Positions 1,329 through 48,332 of a stretch of 51,150 bases of DNA are shown here, in pieces. The notes below the pieces were generated by a model. The model did not search any database. It saw nothing but the letters and a program-made list of their open reading frames with translations, and had not been told where the DNA came from. Each line of letters begins with the position of its first letter. Within the stretch, counting starts at the first letter, position 1. This stretch comes from Candidatus Nomurabacteria bacterium. GTDB taxonomy: Bacteria > Patescibacteriota > Minisyncoccia > Phycocordibacterales > UBA9973. The stretch lies in contig JARIGO010000001.1 in NCBI GenBank assembly GCA_029288805.1, positions 1 through 51,150 of the forward strand. Reading direction: 5' to 3'. Both the position numbers and the translations under genes were made by a program.

Positions 1329-2600
1329 ATGGCAGTAACCCTCATCAGAAAACGAGACGAATCAGTTGCTGATTTTGATCGTTCACGTATCGAAAACGCT
1401 GTTGCGAAGGCATATGCGGCTGAAGGTACGCCTATTGATGAGATTTCTCTATCTATACTGGGTGACCGTGTCATGGTGATACTGGAACACACCTACGACG
1501 AGAAAAACATTCCTACAGTTGAAAACATTCAGGACGTTGTTGAACGTGAGATTGCCCGCAAAGGGGACTTTGAAGTGGCAAGAGCATACATTCTGTATCG
1601 TGAAGAGCGAAACAAGGACCGTAAGCGAGACGTTTTCAAGAAAAGACTGTCTTTGAAGCCCTACGAATACCCGGAGCTCTATGAATATGTCAGTGCCATC
1701 CGCCATTCATACTGGATCCATACCGAGTTTAACTTTGTTGGCGATGTCCAGGACTTCAAGGTTAATGTTGATGAGAAAGAGCGCAATGTCATCCAAAACA
1801 CCATGCTTGCTATCGCGCAGATAGAGGTAGCAGTCAAGACATTTTGGGGAGACATTTATAAGAAAATGCCCAAACCGGAGGTTGGTGCAGTCGGCGCTAC
1901 GTTTGCTGAAAGTGAAGTGCGACACACTGACGCATATGCTCACTTGCTCGAAATACTGGGGCTCAATGATGCCTTCAATAAAATAGACGAGATACCTGCT
2001 CTTATAAAGCGAGTGCACTATTTAGAACGAGCCTTATCCAATGCCAAAAGTGAGGATAACCGAGACTATAGCCAATCCATTCTCTTGTTCTCATTGTTTA
2101 CCGAGCACGTGTCACTCTTCTCACAGTTCCTGATAATGATGTCGTTTAACAAGCACAAGAACTTGTTCAAGGGCATATCAAATGCAGTCGAGGCAACTTC
2201 AAAGGAGGAACAGATACACGGCTTGTTTGGAATCGATATCATAAAGATAGTTAAGGAAGAGCATCCAGACTGGTTTGACGAAGAGTTCGAGGAACAAGTC
2301 ATCAAGATGTGTGAGGAAGCCTTCGAGTCAGAACAACAGGTAGTAGAATGGATATTTGAAAAAGGGGAAATCGAATTCATATCCAAAGCCGCTGTCATAG
2401 AGTTCATCAAGCAACGATTCAATAACTCACTGCACAGTATCGGTATCAAGAAAATCTTCACTACCGATGAGCAGCTTCTCAAAGAGTCAGATTGGTTTTA
2501 TGACGAAGTTATTGCCACAAAACACGGAGACTTCTTCAACAAAAAGTCGATTAACTACAACAAAAAGAACAAGAGCATTACGAGCGATGACCTCTTTTAA
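1329..2600 (+). CDS. nrdB: Ribonucleotide reductase beta subunit with N-terminal ATP-cone (class Id/NrdBi-like)
   Basis: N-terminus IRKRDESVADFDRSRIENAV...TVENIQDVVE...ARAYILYR is an ATP-cone. Ferritin-like ligands IAQIEVAVKTFW, EVRHTDAY, EHVSLFSQF, EEQIHG. Start moved from 1311 to ATG 1329 because TATACT lies at 1314-1319. Confidence 0.95.
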   Translation: MAVTLIRKRDESVADFDRSRIENAVAKAYAAEGTPIDEISLSILGDRVMVILEHTYDEKNIPTVENIQDVVEREIARKGDFEVARAYILYREERNKDRKRDVFKKRLSLKPYEYPELYEYVSAIRHSYWIHTEFNFVGDVQDFKVNVDEKERNVIQNTMLAIAQIEVAVKTFWGDIYKKMPKPEVGAVGATFAESEVRHTDAYAHLLEILGLNDAFNKIDEIPALIKRVHYLERALSNAKSEDNRDYSQSILLFSLFTEHVSLFSQFLIMMSFNKHKNLFKGISNAVEATSKEEQIHGLFGIDIIKIVKEEHPDWFDEEFEEQVIKMCEEAFESEQQVVEWIFEKGEIEFISKAAVIEFIKQRFNNSLHSIGIKKIFTTDEQLLKESDWFYDEVIATKHGDFFNKKSINYNKKNKSITSDDLF

Positions 2601-2622
2601 TAAAGAATTAAATTAAGAACAT

Positions 2623-4356: not shown

Positions 4357-4384
4357 GAAAAAACACCTTTACAGGTGTTTTTTC
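4357..4384. terminator. Bidirectional intrinsic terminator (nrdA / rnpB)
   Basis: GAAAAAACACCT-TTAC-AGGTGTTTTTTC, a perfect 12-bp stem between convergent genes. Confidence 0.85.
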
Positions 4385-4389
4385 ATTAT

Positions 4390-4658
4390 GTTGTACTCGT
4401 AAGCCGAATTCTGTTTTAGTGATCATTTATCTGTGATGCTTGTTACCAAGCACCTATAGCAGCACTTCCTTCGATTGCTCTCGGGACACGGCCTTGCACA
4501 CGGATAGACATTTAGCCGTTTCACTCCCACTAAAGGGATTCGTCACTGTTCGCAGTCCTATGCTTGCGCACGATGGGCATTACCCACTATCTTTTCGCTT
4601 TTTAACGAAGTGTGTTCGGACTTTCCTCTGCATGAATGCAGCGATCATTCGGTACAAC
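4390..4658 (-). ncRNA. rnpB: RNase P RNA, compact (about 269 nt)
   Basis: Minus strand reads GAGGAAAGUCCGAAC near the 5' end and AAAACAGAAUUCGGCUUAC near the 3' end. P1 is GUUGUAC/GUACAAC, P3 is CUGC/GCAG, and the P18-like hairpin is GGUGCUUG-GUAA-CAAGCAUC. Promoter TTGTGC (4687-4692)...TATACT (4665-4670). Confidence 0.93.
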
Positions 4659-4701
4659 AAGGCTAGTATACGGATATTATGAGATAGCACAAGCTTAATT
4701 A

Positions 4702-4891
4702 ATGGCAAATGCATGAAATATTTTGCTGCGGGTTTTCGCTGCGTGGAATAGCTGCAGCTGTTAATGTCCTTACTAAAATATTTCATGCATTTGCCATGCA
4801 AGCTACAAAATAAATAATTTGTCGAGGACCAAAATTGCTGTGCTTATTCAATGCAACGAAAACCCGCAGACATATTATTTATTTTTGTAGC
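4702..4891. repeat. Two inverted copies of a ~95-nt stem-loop module with conserved loop and diverged stems
   Basis: Copy X: perfect 23-bp stem 4702-4724/4775-4797. Copy Y: ~22-bp stem 4802-4823/4869-4891 (1 bulge, 1 mismatch). The loops are reverse-complement homologs (CTGCGGGTTTTCG 4726-4738 vs CGAAAACCCGCAG 4857-4869, with similarity continuing to GTCCT). Confidence 0.85.
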
Positions 4892-4946
4892 GATGCATCA
4901 TTAATCTTTTTTAAACGCAAACAATTTGCATTTAAAAAAAAGTGAG

Positions 4947-4955
4947 TTATCCACA
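4947..4955 (+). promoter_or_regulatory. Consensus DnaA box
   Basis: TTATCCACA, an exact match. Single copy, so function is unproven. Confidence 0.4.
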
Positions 4956-5085
4956 GTTTTTGTTACAAATTATTTGCATGCATGTGTTGCACGCGAGATA
5001 ATTAAGGTACGAGTGATGATAACGCGTTATCACAATATGTGGTCGATCATCACCGAAGATTAACAGTAAACATAACTTACATTTT

Positions 5086-5196
5086 ATGGCAGCAAAAAAG
5101 AAAGTAGCCAAGAAGAAGGTTGCAAAGAAGGTAGCTAAGAAGGCTACAAAGAAGGCAGCTCCAAAGAAAAAGGTTGCTAAAAAGAAAAAGAAATAA
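5086..5196 (+). CDS. 36-aa histone H1-like Lys/Ala-rich protein (not in ORF track)
   Basis: Translates to MAAKKKVAKKKVAKKVAKKATKKAAPKKKVAKKKKK*. Synonymous codon variation in the repeats, AU-rich upstream region, and a terminator 5224-5251 directly downstream. Confidence 0.85.
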   Translation: MAAKKKVAKKKVAKKVAKKATKKAAPKKKVAKKKKK

Positions 5197-5301: not shown

Positions 5302-7590
5302 ATGGCATTTTCACTACAATCATTATTTGACCGCGGACAGGTAAAAGGCTACCAGAGTAAGGCTCAAAAAATAGGCCAATTGGAGGAACGATTGACTGGT
5401 CTTACGGACGAGCAATTTCCGCTAGAAACGGAAGCGCTCAAGGCCCGATTGGCTCAAGGCGAAACCTTGAATGACATTTTGCCTGAAGCATTTGCGCTCG
5501 TTCGCGAAGCGGCAAAACGTACTATGAATAAGCGTCATTACGACGTGCAGCTTATTGGTGGTATGGTTTTGCACGAAGGTAAGATTGCAGAAATGCGTAC
5601 CGGTGAAGGTAAGACTATGGTCGCAACATTACCAGTATATTTGAACGCACTTGCTGGCCGCGGTGTACACGTTGTCACTGTTAACGACTACTTGGCACGT
5701 CGTGACGCAACATGGATGGGTCAGATTTATAATTTCCTCGGTCTTTCCGTTGGTATTATTAATGATCAAAACCAATCATTCGTATACGACCCTACGCATC
5801 AGGAGCTTGATGAGGAGCGCGATGAGGAAGGTTCATTCAAAGTTATCAAGCAGTTCCTCCGTCCTGTTACTCGCAAGGAAGCCTATCAAGCAGACATTAC
5901 ATACGGTACAAACAGTCAGTACGGTTTTGACTATCTTCGTGACAACCTCGTAAATACAAAAGAGGAAATCGTGCAGCGCGATCATTACTTTGCCGTTGTC
6001 GATGAAGTGGACTCTATTCTGATCGATGAGTCACGTACGCCATTGATCATTTCCTCTGCCATCGCAGAGTCAGAAGCGCTCTACAAGACCGTTCGCGACA
6101 TCGCCAACAAGATGGAGCCAGAAAAGGACTTTACTGTTGATGAGAAGCTTAAGGCGATCACATTGACTGATGATGGTATTACCAAGGCTGAAAAAATGCT
6201 TGGTATTGAAAACATGTATACCGAAAAGGGCATTAAGTATGCTCACTACCTTGAAACAGCGGTTCGCGCCCGAGCGCTCTTTATCAAGGATAAGGACTAT
6301 GTGGTTAAGGACGGGGAGGTAATCATTGTCGATACCTTTACTGGCCGCATGCAGCCAGGACGTCGTTGGTCAGAAGGATTGCACCAGGCTATTGAGGCAA
6401 AGGAAGGCGTGAAGGTTGAGCAGGAAACTCGTGCCGTGGCATCTATCACATACCAAAACTACTTTAAGCTGTACGAAAAGCTTTCTGGTATGACTGGTAC
6501 CGCCAAGACCAGTGAGGAAGAGTTCATGAAAGTGTATGGCTTGAGCGTAGTTACTATTCCTACTAATCGTCCCATACAGCGTATCGACCATCATGACCAG
6601 ATCTTCCAGACCGAAAACGGTAAGTTTGAAGCTATTGCTCGAAAGGTTAAGGAGCTCAATGCCACAGGTCAGCCAGTATTGATCGGTACTGTCTCTATTG
6701 AAAAGAACGAACTGTTGGCGGCCTATCTAAAACGTGCAGGTATTCCACATCAGGTATTGAATGCCAAGAATCACGAAAATGAAGGTTCCGTTATCGCTCA
6801 AGCTGGTAAAAAGGGCAATGTTGTTATTGCTACCAACTTGGCCGGTCGTGGTGTCGACATTATTTTGGGTGGTACGCCATCAACTCCAGAAGAACAGGAA
6901 GAGGTTAAGAAACTCGGTGGATTGTTTGTTATCGGTACCGAGCGTCATGAAGCGCGCCGTATTGATAATCAGCTCCGAGGTCGTAGTGGACGTCAGGGTG
7001 ACCCCGGCCAGACCCAGTTTTATGTGTCCCTCGAAGACGAACTGATGCGCGTCTTTGGTTCAGAACGCCTCAAGTCTATGATGACTCGCTTTGGCATGCC
7101 GGAAGACCAGCCTATTGTAAACGGCTTTGTTAGTAGCGCTTTGGAGTCTGCCCAGAAGAAAATTGAAGGTTTTCACTTCGATGCCCGTAAGAATACCTTG
7201 GAATACGATACTGTATTGTCATATCAGCGAACTATCATCTATGATCGCCGTCGCGCCATGGTTATGGGGGACAGAGGTCACGTTATGAGTAGTTTCTATG
7301 CCTTGGGTGATATGGAGACTCTGGAACCGATCGTAAAGGAGAAAATCGCCTTGGTAGGGGAAGATGCATTCTGGGAACAGGTTCGTCGCGTTGTTCTGTA
7401 TACCACTGATACTTTGTGGGTAGAACACATTGATACCATGGAACATATGCGTCAATCAGTTGGATTGCGTGCCTACGGCCAGCGTGAACCGCTTGTTGAA
7501 TACAAAAAAGAGTCTACTCGGCTCTTTAAGGAGATGGAACAGCGCTTGAAAGACCAAGTAATCACAATGGTTAGTGCCATTTCTAAGTAA
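5302..7590 (+). CDS. secA: Preprotein translocase ATPase SecA (C-terminally shortened)
   Basis: EMRTGEGKT Walker A, VTVNDYLARRDA, DEVDSILIDE, ATNLAGRGVDI, RRIDNQLRGRSGRQGDPG. Confidence 0.98.
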   Translation: MAFSLQSLFDRGQVKGYQSKAQKIGQLEERLTGLTDEQFPLETEALKARLAQGETLNDILPEAFALVREAAKRTMNKRHYDVQLIGGMVLHEGKIAEMRTGEGKTMVATLPVYLNALAGRGVHVVTVNDYLARRDATWMGQIYNFLGLSVGIINDQNQSFVYDPTHQELDEERDEEGSFKVIKQFLRPVTRKEAYQADITYGTNSQYGFDYLRDNLVNTKEEIVQRDHYFAVVDEVDSILIDESRTPLIISSAIAESEALYKTVRDIANKMEPEKDFTVDEKLKAITLTDDGITKAEKMLGIENMYTEKGIKYAHYLETAVRARALFIKDKDYVVKDGEVIIVDTFTGRMQPGRRWSEGLHQAIEAKEGVKVEQETRAVASITYQNYFKLYEKLSGMTGTAKTSEEEFMKVYGLSVVTIPTNRPIQRIDHHDQIFQTENGKFEAIARKVKELNATGQPVLIGTVSIEKNELLAAYLKRAGIPHQVLNAKNHENEGSVIAQAGKKGNVVIATNLAGRGVDIILGGTPSTPEEQEEVKKLGGLFVIGTERHEARRIDNQLRGRSGRQGDPGQTQFYVSLEDELMRVFGSERLKSMMTRFGMPEDQPIVNGFVSSALESAQKKIEGFHFDARKNTLEYDTVLSYQRTIIYDRRRAMVMGDRGHVMSSFYALGDMETLEPIVKEKIALVGEDAFWEQVRRVVLYTTDTLWVEHIDTMEHMRQSVGLRAYGQREPLVEYKKESTRLFKEMEQRLKDQVITMVSAISK

Positions 7591-48057: not shown

Positions 48058-48224
48058 AGTTATTTAATTGTTAAGTTGCAAATTTTGTGAATTAATTTTG
48101 ATTATATTTTAGCACAAATATGTCAAATTGTCAATGAAGAAGAAACGAATAAAAAGCTTACGAAATAAGCTTGAAAGGGAAGCGCAAATACTGTATTATG
48201 AATCCTACGTGTTGTGTCCAAAGT

Positions 48225-48306
48225 GCTGGGATGGTGGAATTGGTATACACGTTAGTCTTAGGAACTAATGCCGAAAGGCTTGGGAGTTCAAGTCTCCCTC
48301 CCAGCA
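48225..48306 (+). tRNA. tRNA-Leu(TAG)
   Basis: GCTGGGA/TCCCAGC acceptor stem, TTAGT-CT-TAG-GA-ACTAA anticodon arm, and long variable arm. Confidence 0.97.
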
Positions 48307-48332
48307 CTTTGGACAGATACTGTCTTTATATC

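Follow-up and report, generated by a model that had tools for sequence, protein, structure and literature searches.

Paired quasi-palindromes upstream of rnpB in a Candidatus Nomurabacteria genome, best read as template-switch-shaped arms around a constrained core

We analysed a 51,150-nucleotide stretch of a Candidatus Nomurabacteria genome, referred to here as the window, in which genes for the small and large subunits of ribonucleotide reductase (plus strand) are followed by rnpB (minus strand), two hairpin modules that we call X and Y, a 36-aa lysine-rich open reading frame (ORF) and secA (Table 1). For comparison we used the secA neighbourhoods of ten related SecA lineages with 86–93% amino-acid identity to the window, which are given L numbers below. 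Homologs of its SecA assign the organism to Patescibacteria (Paceibacterota). The rnpB promoter is kept in L001, L002, L019, L029 and L030, whichever way the gene faces, and the first arm of X begins 9 nt upstream of its −35 element, just where the preliminary description of this DNA had placed it. On the other side of Y, the region ahead of the lysine-rich ORF is 82–87% identical in all relatives by BLAST. A Pfam scan of 20 other ORFs in the window found housekeeping genes and no transposase, recombinase, integrase, invertase or reverse transcriptase.

Table 1. Positions of features around the rnpB–secA spacer in the window and of hairpin modules in related loci
Sequence	Feature	Position	Strand	Description
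Window	Shared bidirectional terminator, ribonucleotide reductase genes and rnpB	4357–4384		
Window	rnpB (RF00010)	4384–4660	minus	Rfam covariance model
Window	rnpB promoter	4665–4692	minus	−35 TTGTGC, 16-nt spacer, −10 TATACT; read by eye
Window	Whole insertion-like block	4698–4905		Bounded by ATTAATG (4698–4704) and CATTAAT (4899–4905)
Window	Module X (type T1)	4702–4797		23-bp perfect stem and 50-nt loop
Window	X 5′ stem arm, ATGGCAAATGCATGAAATATTTT	4702–4724		23/23 Watson-Crick with 4775–4797
Window	X loop	4725–4774	plus	50 nt; conserved-core sense on plus strand
Window	T1 core, CGGGTTTTCGCTGCGTGGAATAGCTGCAGCTGTT	4729–4762	plus	Best-conserved part of X; 31/34 identical to L019 2528–2561 (minus)
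Window	10-bp palindrome AGCTGCAGCT	4750–4759		Inside T1 core; repeat search
Window	X 3′ stem arm	4775–4797		100% complementary to 4702–4724, 50 nt apart
Window	Module Y (type T2)	~4797–4897		17-nt core arms, ~27 bp with defects
Window	Y left stem arm	4797–4823		Near-perfect core 4807–4823
Window	Y loop	4824–4868	minus	45 nt; conserved-core sense on minus strand
Window	Y right stem arm	4869–4897		Core 4869–4885
Window	Upstream region, promoter and leader of lysine-rich ORF and secA	4906–5085	plus	Conserved
Window	Lysine-rich ORF	5086–5196		36 aa
Window	secA	5302–7590		
L019	Module A (T2)	~2326–2425		Imperfect stem; GCACAGCAATTTT common to A and Y
L019	Module B (T1)	2495–2586		19-bp perfect stem AGAACACCAGTGTAGTATC
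L023	H1	2353–2444		31-bp perfect stem in L023; same coordinates in L024
L023	H2	2514–2603		28-bp perfect stem; same coordinates in L024

Other features of the window are recorded here as observations in their own right. The rnpB match spans 277 nt, compared with 313–357 nt in L001, L002 and L006 and a BLAST span of ~331 nt in L019, and scores 109 bits against an Rfam threshold of 100; because the match is short and its score barely exceeds the threshold, some helices are probably missing. The leader at 5007–5066 (~60 nt; GTACGAGTGATGATAACGCGTTATCACA...GTGGTCGATCATCACCGAAGATTAACAG) is nearly invariant across ten lineages, can fold into alternative hairpins (GTGATGAT/ATCATCAC) and is a candidate cis-regulatory RNA; it had no Rfam match and showed no covariation across the compared lineages, since nothing varies there. 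A perfect DnaA box (TTATCCACA) at 4947–4955 precedes the promoter of the lysine-rich gene and is found in every relative whose sequence was read. No other perfect box occurs in the window, which suggests DnaA-dependent regulation rather than an origin. The 3′ part of a 16S rRNA gene (1–525) occupies 525 nt for 402 model positions; within it, an inverted repeat of 21 nt (37–57 and 113–133) encloses an AT-rich segment that is probably an intervening sequence, of a sort common in the Patescibacteria phylum. At the tRNA gene at 48225–48306, the flanking 10 nt on each side lengthen the acceptor stem to a 20-nt inverted repeat (48215–48315) that is 95% complementary and may be a precursor processing stem.

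The perfect stem that the preliminary description reported for X is borne out in full, every pair being Watson-Crick. For Y it had given a stem of ~22 bp; the arms are indeed self-complementary, but we measured core arms of 17 nt that are 94% complementary and 45 nt apart, with pairing that reaches outward to ~4797/4897 and, on folding, is interrupted by two mismatches and two bulges of 1 nt. As had been noticed, the loops are inverted homologs of one another: the motif CTGCGGGTTTTCGYTGCRTKGAATA occurs exactly twice in the window, at 4726–4750 (plus) and 4845–4869 (minus), and in none of 100 shuffles, and the two loops are identical at 32/45 to 34/44 positions (z = 10 against shuffles), which upholds the view of the modules as paralogs. 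The first 13 nt of the Y loop (4857–4869, minus) are identical to 4726–4738 in X. Besides hairpins associated with tRNA and rRNA, X and Y are the only hairpins with long stems and large loops in the window. The 226-nt region that contains them folds far better than shuffled sequences on the plus strand (z = −7.0) and on the minus strand (z = −6.6). It had also been proposed that the block could fold as a single rod of ~208 nt and so act as a bistable RNA. The rod can form; it is, however, ~10 kcal/mol less stable than two hairpins (−67.1 versus −77.2 kcal/mol) and is impossible in L019, as described below. There is a weak likeness between the arms of X and Y and the −35 region next to them (71%; 11/11).

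The block matches no known RNA family, in agreement with the preliminary description: in scans of the window, L019 and L023 against Rfam 15, no family reached its gathering threshold at 4698–4905, and in E-value mode only generic miRNA-precursor hairpin models were returned (the best, MIR2630, scored 38.7 bits where its threshold is 144). Inspection by eye revealed no SRP domain IV, hammerhead core or C/D boxes. We rejected a protein-coding micro-ORF, as no frame is open in all copies; an 84-aa frame on the minus strand of L019 has a stop in X, a 34-aa frame of X meets a stop in Y and lacks a start codon in B, and there is no ORF between the modules. A replication origin or terminus was rejected on the grounds that cumulative GC skew rises smoothly from 0 to 20 kb and that the one perfect DnaA box (4947) is at chance level. 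An integron attC site was rejected as well, since the R″/R′ boxes are not at the arm ends by eye and the scanned ORFs include no integrase, and so were stems captured as foreign ‘spacers’, for neither the window, the compared loci nor IMG/VR contains a further match to an arm of X, B, H1 or H2. A divergent promoter reading into the modules from the palindromic region 4907–4939 is a weak lead: its hexamers lack the invariant −7 T, and a promoter scan finds nothing there.

To look beyond the related loci we scanned genomes and metagenomes with a pattern derived from X and Y, TGCGGGTTTTCGNTGCN{2,5}GAATA, which fixes 20 nt exactly and which modules B and A of L019 would not match. It gave three matches in GTDB genomes, five in JGI metagenomes and none in IMG/VR, and all eight are chance matches in unrelated high-GC contexts. 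A T1-core pattern (TGGAATAGCTGCARCTGTT) is absent from IMG/VR viral contigs, as is a pattern for the H loops from IMG/VR, and blastn against phages and plasmids returned nothing meaningful.

The flanks of the spacer, namely rnpB with its promoter and the region at 4906–5085, are conserved in all ten lineages, whereas the spacer between them is hypervariable. With rnpB on the minus strand, as in the window, L019, L020 and L021 carry modules A and B, which are of the X/Y type; L001 has a different sequence of ~150 nt, and L029 has ~45 nt, an ‘empty site’. With rnpB on the plus strand, L002, L006, L017, L022, L026 and L030 have spacers without a long-stem hairpin pair, and L023, L024 and L025 have an unrelated hairpin pair, H1/H2. 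The spacer is short or different in L001, L002, L006, L017, L022, L026 and L030, and the block has no counterpart in most relatives; homology of the window with L001, L002 and L029 ends at ~4696 and resumes at ~4906. Because most relatives are without it, the X/Y-type element is, on these comparisons, accessory and lineage-restricted.

Two further observations concern the same neighbourhoods. The rnpB gene, with its own promoter, is flipped between close relatives: the window, L001, L019 and L029 have it on the minus strand, all the others on the plus strand; L019 and L017/L022 have it in opposite orientations although their SecA proteins are 96% identical, and no flanking inverted repeat able to mediate the inversion was obvious at the compared loci. 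Some relatives (L001 2652–3101; L019 1667–1882) have a small ribbon-helix-helix gene between the ribonucleotide reductase gene and rnpB that is absent from the window; an 85-aa ORF comes after it in L001, and the two look like a toxin-antitoxin pair.

L019, L020 and L021 are three independent assemblies that are identical over the compared spacer. The loop of module B is identical to that of X at 39/50 positions, and its core (CGGGTTYTCGCTGCSTGGAATAGCTGCARCTGTT) at 31/34, while the stems of B and X have no similarity (arm-versus-arm z ~0). L019 thus carries both loop types on unrelated stems, which confirms that the stems change and yet stay paired: outer stems have been replaced entirely between lineages. 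Each genome has one T1 module (X or B) and one T2 module (Y or A), so the pair, as judged from these sequences, predates the split of the window and L019 lineages. A search of all the DNA compared (the 51-kb window and ~250 kb of related loci) with an nhmmer profile of the loop returned X, Y, B and A only. The arrangement differs between the two genomes. Reading away from rnpB, the window has T1(+) and then T2(−), and L019 has T2(−) and then T1(−), that is, in tandem and in swapped order. Since order and orientation differ, the inverted arrangement, the rod and loop-loop pairing are not conserved features; the rod and loop-loop pairing are impossible in L019 because its modules are in tandem.

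The four-fold degenerate sites of secA are saturated between the window and L019, with 33.7% identity where 30% is expected at random. Because the 31/34 identity of the T1 core has persisted over this divergence, we conclude that the core is constrained in sequence, while the arm sequence appears to drift freely. Between these two genomes other intergenic spacers share ~75% identity too, and the T1 core is thus as conserved as other, presumably functional, intergenic DNA and no more; as modules of the X/Y type are present in two lineages only, the constraint rests on one orthologous comparison per type. T1, with the better-conserved core, has perfect arms in both lineages, and T2, with the worse-conserved core, has decaying arms in both, the stems of Y and A decaying through transversions and indels. 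In X, Y and B the arms stop within ~3 nt of the conserved core. RNAalifold applied inside the loops, on both strands and with 3–4 sequences only, gave no supported helix, a positive covariation term (a penalty) and several broken pairs.

The H1/H2 pair of L023 and L024 is unrelated to X and Y but has the same architecture and occupies the same spacer. Its loops, 29–30 nt long and G-rich (AATCGGGGTATGGGCGGGGGCTGGCCGTT), are exact reverse complements of each other. L023 and L024 encode the same SecA, and over their first 6,141 nt, beyond which L024 is a run of N, their sole difference is 21 nt in the H1 loop. Positions 10–30 of the H1 loop in L024 are the reverse complement of positions 1–21 of that loop in L023. 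This replacement extends the perfect stem of H1 from 31 to 40 bp, inverts its centre and changes the folding energy from −56.8 to −77.9 kcal/mol. Read from the two sequences, the difference is a textbook signature of a replication template switch, a process described as producing a perfect stem by a single event and as inverting loops (Monttinen & Loytynoja 2022, PMC8794818). A templated difference between close relatives is thus present in the H1 pair; X and Y have no relative close enough to compare in this way. All 101 pairs in the perfect stems of X (23 bp), B (19 bp), H1 (31 bp) and H2 (28 bp) are Watson-Crick and none is G.U, so the arms are strand-symmetric in all of these modules. In stems held only by selection at the RNA level, some wobble pairs are expected.

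These results bear on the argument that compensation in the stems implies selection on structure, which the preliminary description had put forward and which they do not support. Stems of Watson-Crick pairs alone, together with the one-step templated lengthening of a stem by 21 nt in a sister locus, mean that the complementarity can arise by mutation at the DNA level. We conclude that the co-varying stems are real, that DNA-level copying explains them best and that they do not prove an RNA gene.

Two contigs begin inside a hairpin loop: that of L020 in the loop of module A (its position 1 is L019 2380) and that of L025 in the H1 loop, at its variable point. Such breaks may reflect mixed loop states within populations.

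The reading that we prefer, and that we consider evenly poised between right and wrong, is that X and Y are old paralogous non-coding quasi-palindromes whose arms were made by template switching around a constrained core, in a dispensable spacer. Each module would comprise a sequence-constrained core of ~35–45 nt with long inverted arms flush on both sides. Fold-back during replication would copy one arm from the other, by which DNA palindromes would be made, perfected, lengthened and replaced, and the same switching could invert the loop. Inward growth of the stem would halt at bases under selection, thereby closing in on the core, and templated exchange between complementary loops would homogenise their sequence. 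Arms that are unrelated between copies and lineages and yet purely Watson-Crick would be expected because they were copied by template switching, and the arms would end so near the core because selection on it stops inward extension of the kind seen in L024. Templated exchange would likewise account for the 13-mer identical between X and Y and for the matching loops of H1 and H2, and template switching for the lineage differences in orientation and order. Against this, the switch was observed in the H-type pair and not in X or Y, and the conservation of the core does not exceed that of other intergenic spacers. Moreover, long palindromes are normally unstable, but here they persist round the same core in two diverged lineages, and the pairing itself could be selected.

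If X and Y are quasi-palindromes of this kind, the question is what the core does. It might be a recognition site that works in either orientation, with, for instance, a dimeric DNA-binding protein bound to the AGCTGCAGCT palindrome, a suggestion that we make tentatively and hold to be somewhat more probably wrong than right. A core that is bound or structured would stall replication forks and could thereby provoke template switches around itself. That the loop instead works within a transcript, where it would be presented as a single strand, seems to us rather doubtful. We lean slightly towards a DNA recognition site because primary sequence is conserved without covariation, because the core contains a 10-bp palindrome, and because either orientation is tolerated and the modules have no promoter or terminator of their own.

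The combination of a conserved loop with co-varying stems is the classic signature for nominating RNA genes, and the alternative that survives best takes X and Y to be small structured RNA genes, with a conserved loop of ~50 nt closed by a long stem that is selected as RNA; the stem could, for instance, be a stalk from which RNase III processing frees the loop, in the manner of the stems of rRNA and tRNA precursors. We consider this unlikely, although a good deal speaks for it. The loops are conserved, and their stems free but paired, across lineages with saturated secA four-fold sites; both strands fold far better than shuffles; one tRNA acceptor stem in the window genome is lengthened by 10 bp through its complementary flanks; and the persistence of long palindromes suggests that pairing matters. 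It is harder to square with the absence of G.U from the 101 stem pairs, or with loops that contain no covarying helix and incur a covariation penalty. No promoter or terminator conserved with the modules was found, and T1 faces opposite ways relative to its neighbours in the window and L019; on these two counts the modules do not look like a structured small RNA gene with its own promoter and terminator and a fixed orientation. The modules also have no Rfam relative and are missing from most close relatives. The earlier proposal of paralogous small RNAs on opposite strands is not supported, as neither a conserved promoter or terminator nor covariation in the loops was found; an RNA role for the loop is nevertheless still a serious rival.

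We think it quite improbable that the block has no function and is simply what a mutational hot spot leaves behind, a spacer between two highly expressed units where template switches and inversions pile up local inverted copies and where the similarity of loops between lineages reflects local exchange and not selection. The strain-level event that separates L023 from L024 is of the kind that a hot spot would generate, and the inversion of rnpB between close relatives, the different spacer content of nearly every lineage, the empty site of L029 and the faint likeness of the X and Y arms to the neighbouring −35 region all fit. Such a process would nonetheless not be expected to leave a T1 core 31/34 identical where secA four-fold sites are saturated, and recent transfer of the locus is unlikely because rnpB and the promoter flanks of the window and L019 are not unusually similar. 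Nor are random template switches expected to give an arm-core-arm architecture, twice, that recurs.

A role for the element as double-stranded DNA between divergent promoters, whether as a cruciform, as a sink for supercoils or as two polar sites that face each other (such as a fork trap), is very unlikely in our view. Its position between the divergently transcribed rnpB and lysine-rich gene/secA would suit such a role, and the two imperfect inverted repeats of ~45 nt, 53 nt apart, recall terI and terII of Bacillus subtilis, opposed replication-fork-trap sites ~0.1 kb apart (PMC13220808). The tandem orientation of the modules in L019, however, is incompatible with a fork trap, there is no change in the sign of GC skew or switch in gene strand near 4.8 kb, and the single DnaA-box-like site nearby is at chance level for the window. 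Loops of 45–50 nt also make cruciform extrusion costly.

Least credible is an inserted miniature mobile or selfish hairpin repeat (MITE-like, REP/BIME-like or hairpin-forming): although the block is patchy among relatives and bounded like an insertion by ATTAATG/CATTAAT, and its two cores make up imperfect inverted repeats of 45 nt that agree fully over the outermost 13 nt, like transposon ends, only two copies were found in 51 kb, both at this site, with no further copy in ~250 kb of related loci, no clean target-site duplication or direct repeat flanking the block (on which grounds a MITE or insertion-sequence remnant was rejected), cores in tandem and not inverted in L019, no transposase or recombinase in the 20 scanned ORFs, and chance matches only in the exact-pattern scans of GTDB genomes, JGI metagenomes and IMG/VR, with a pattern that would miss B-like relatives.

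It is also conceivable, if improbable, that these hairpins represent an undescribed class of Patescibacteria element in which a conserved single-stranded loop is shown on a long stem of free sequence. In an RNA-release version, a small RNA could be freed from a perfect double-stranded stalk; in a flip-flop version, template switching could invert the 30–50-nt loop and so toggle loop-loop complementarity between neighbouring hairpins. H1/H2 would then be a functional analogue of X and Y and not a coincidence.

The feature is real and non-random, and template-switch-shaped quasi-palindromes around a constrained core are its best reading. The locus is a caution for covariation arguments, as it shows the signature of an RNA gene arising from a DNA-level process, caught between two near-identical genomes. 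If the core serves for recognition or for fork stalling, the locus would be a natural system in which to see template switching build and renew long bacterial palindromes; if the loops are functional RNAs, they would form a new class, restricted to a lineage, in a phylum for which very few regulatory RNAs have been described.

Several known systems resemble the modules in part. The REP/BIME elements of enterobacteria have conserved short stems in units of ~20–40 nt, with hundreds of copies and RAYT transposases. Like X and Y they are intergenic, non-coding hairpin units, often in inverted pairs and variably present between strains; in contrast, the modules described here conserve the loop and not the stems, are present in two copies at one site and have no RAYT that we could see. 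Integron attC sites, whose R″/R′ boxes (RYYYAAC...GTTRRRY) are conserved at the base of the stem while the apex varies, are likewise hairpins (~60–140 nt) that keep their structure while their sequence varies, and are recognised as folded single strands, whereas here the apex is conserved and there are no flanking boxes, no cassettes and no integrase in view. Invertons, the invertible promoter switches, share the perfect inverted repeats around a segment whose orientation depends on the lineage, but the segment flanked here is 30–54 bp, with no promoter-like sequence and no invertase gene nearby, and the one change observed, in L024, is a partial templated replacement and not a clean flip. The processing stalks of rRNA and tRNA precursors, which are RNase III substrates, also enclose a conserved part in a long stem of free sequence; compared by sequence alone, the modules differ in having no G.U pairs and no fixed orientation to neighbouring genes. 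The closest parallel to our preferred reading is with the quasi-palindromes made by template switching (Loytynoja & Goldman 2017, PMC5453318; Monttinen & Loytynoja 2022, PMC8794818). The modules differ from reported cases in that the switches would be repeated, in pairs, around a conserved core of 35–50 nt at one bacterial intergenic locus, and in their size, with arms of 19–40 bp and loops of 30–54 nt that far exceed the mostly 4-nt loop inversions reported for rRNA. They are alike in perfect stems made in one event, in stem extension and in loop inversion, and the difference between L023 and L024 fits the reverse-complement-copy model exactly.
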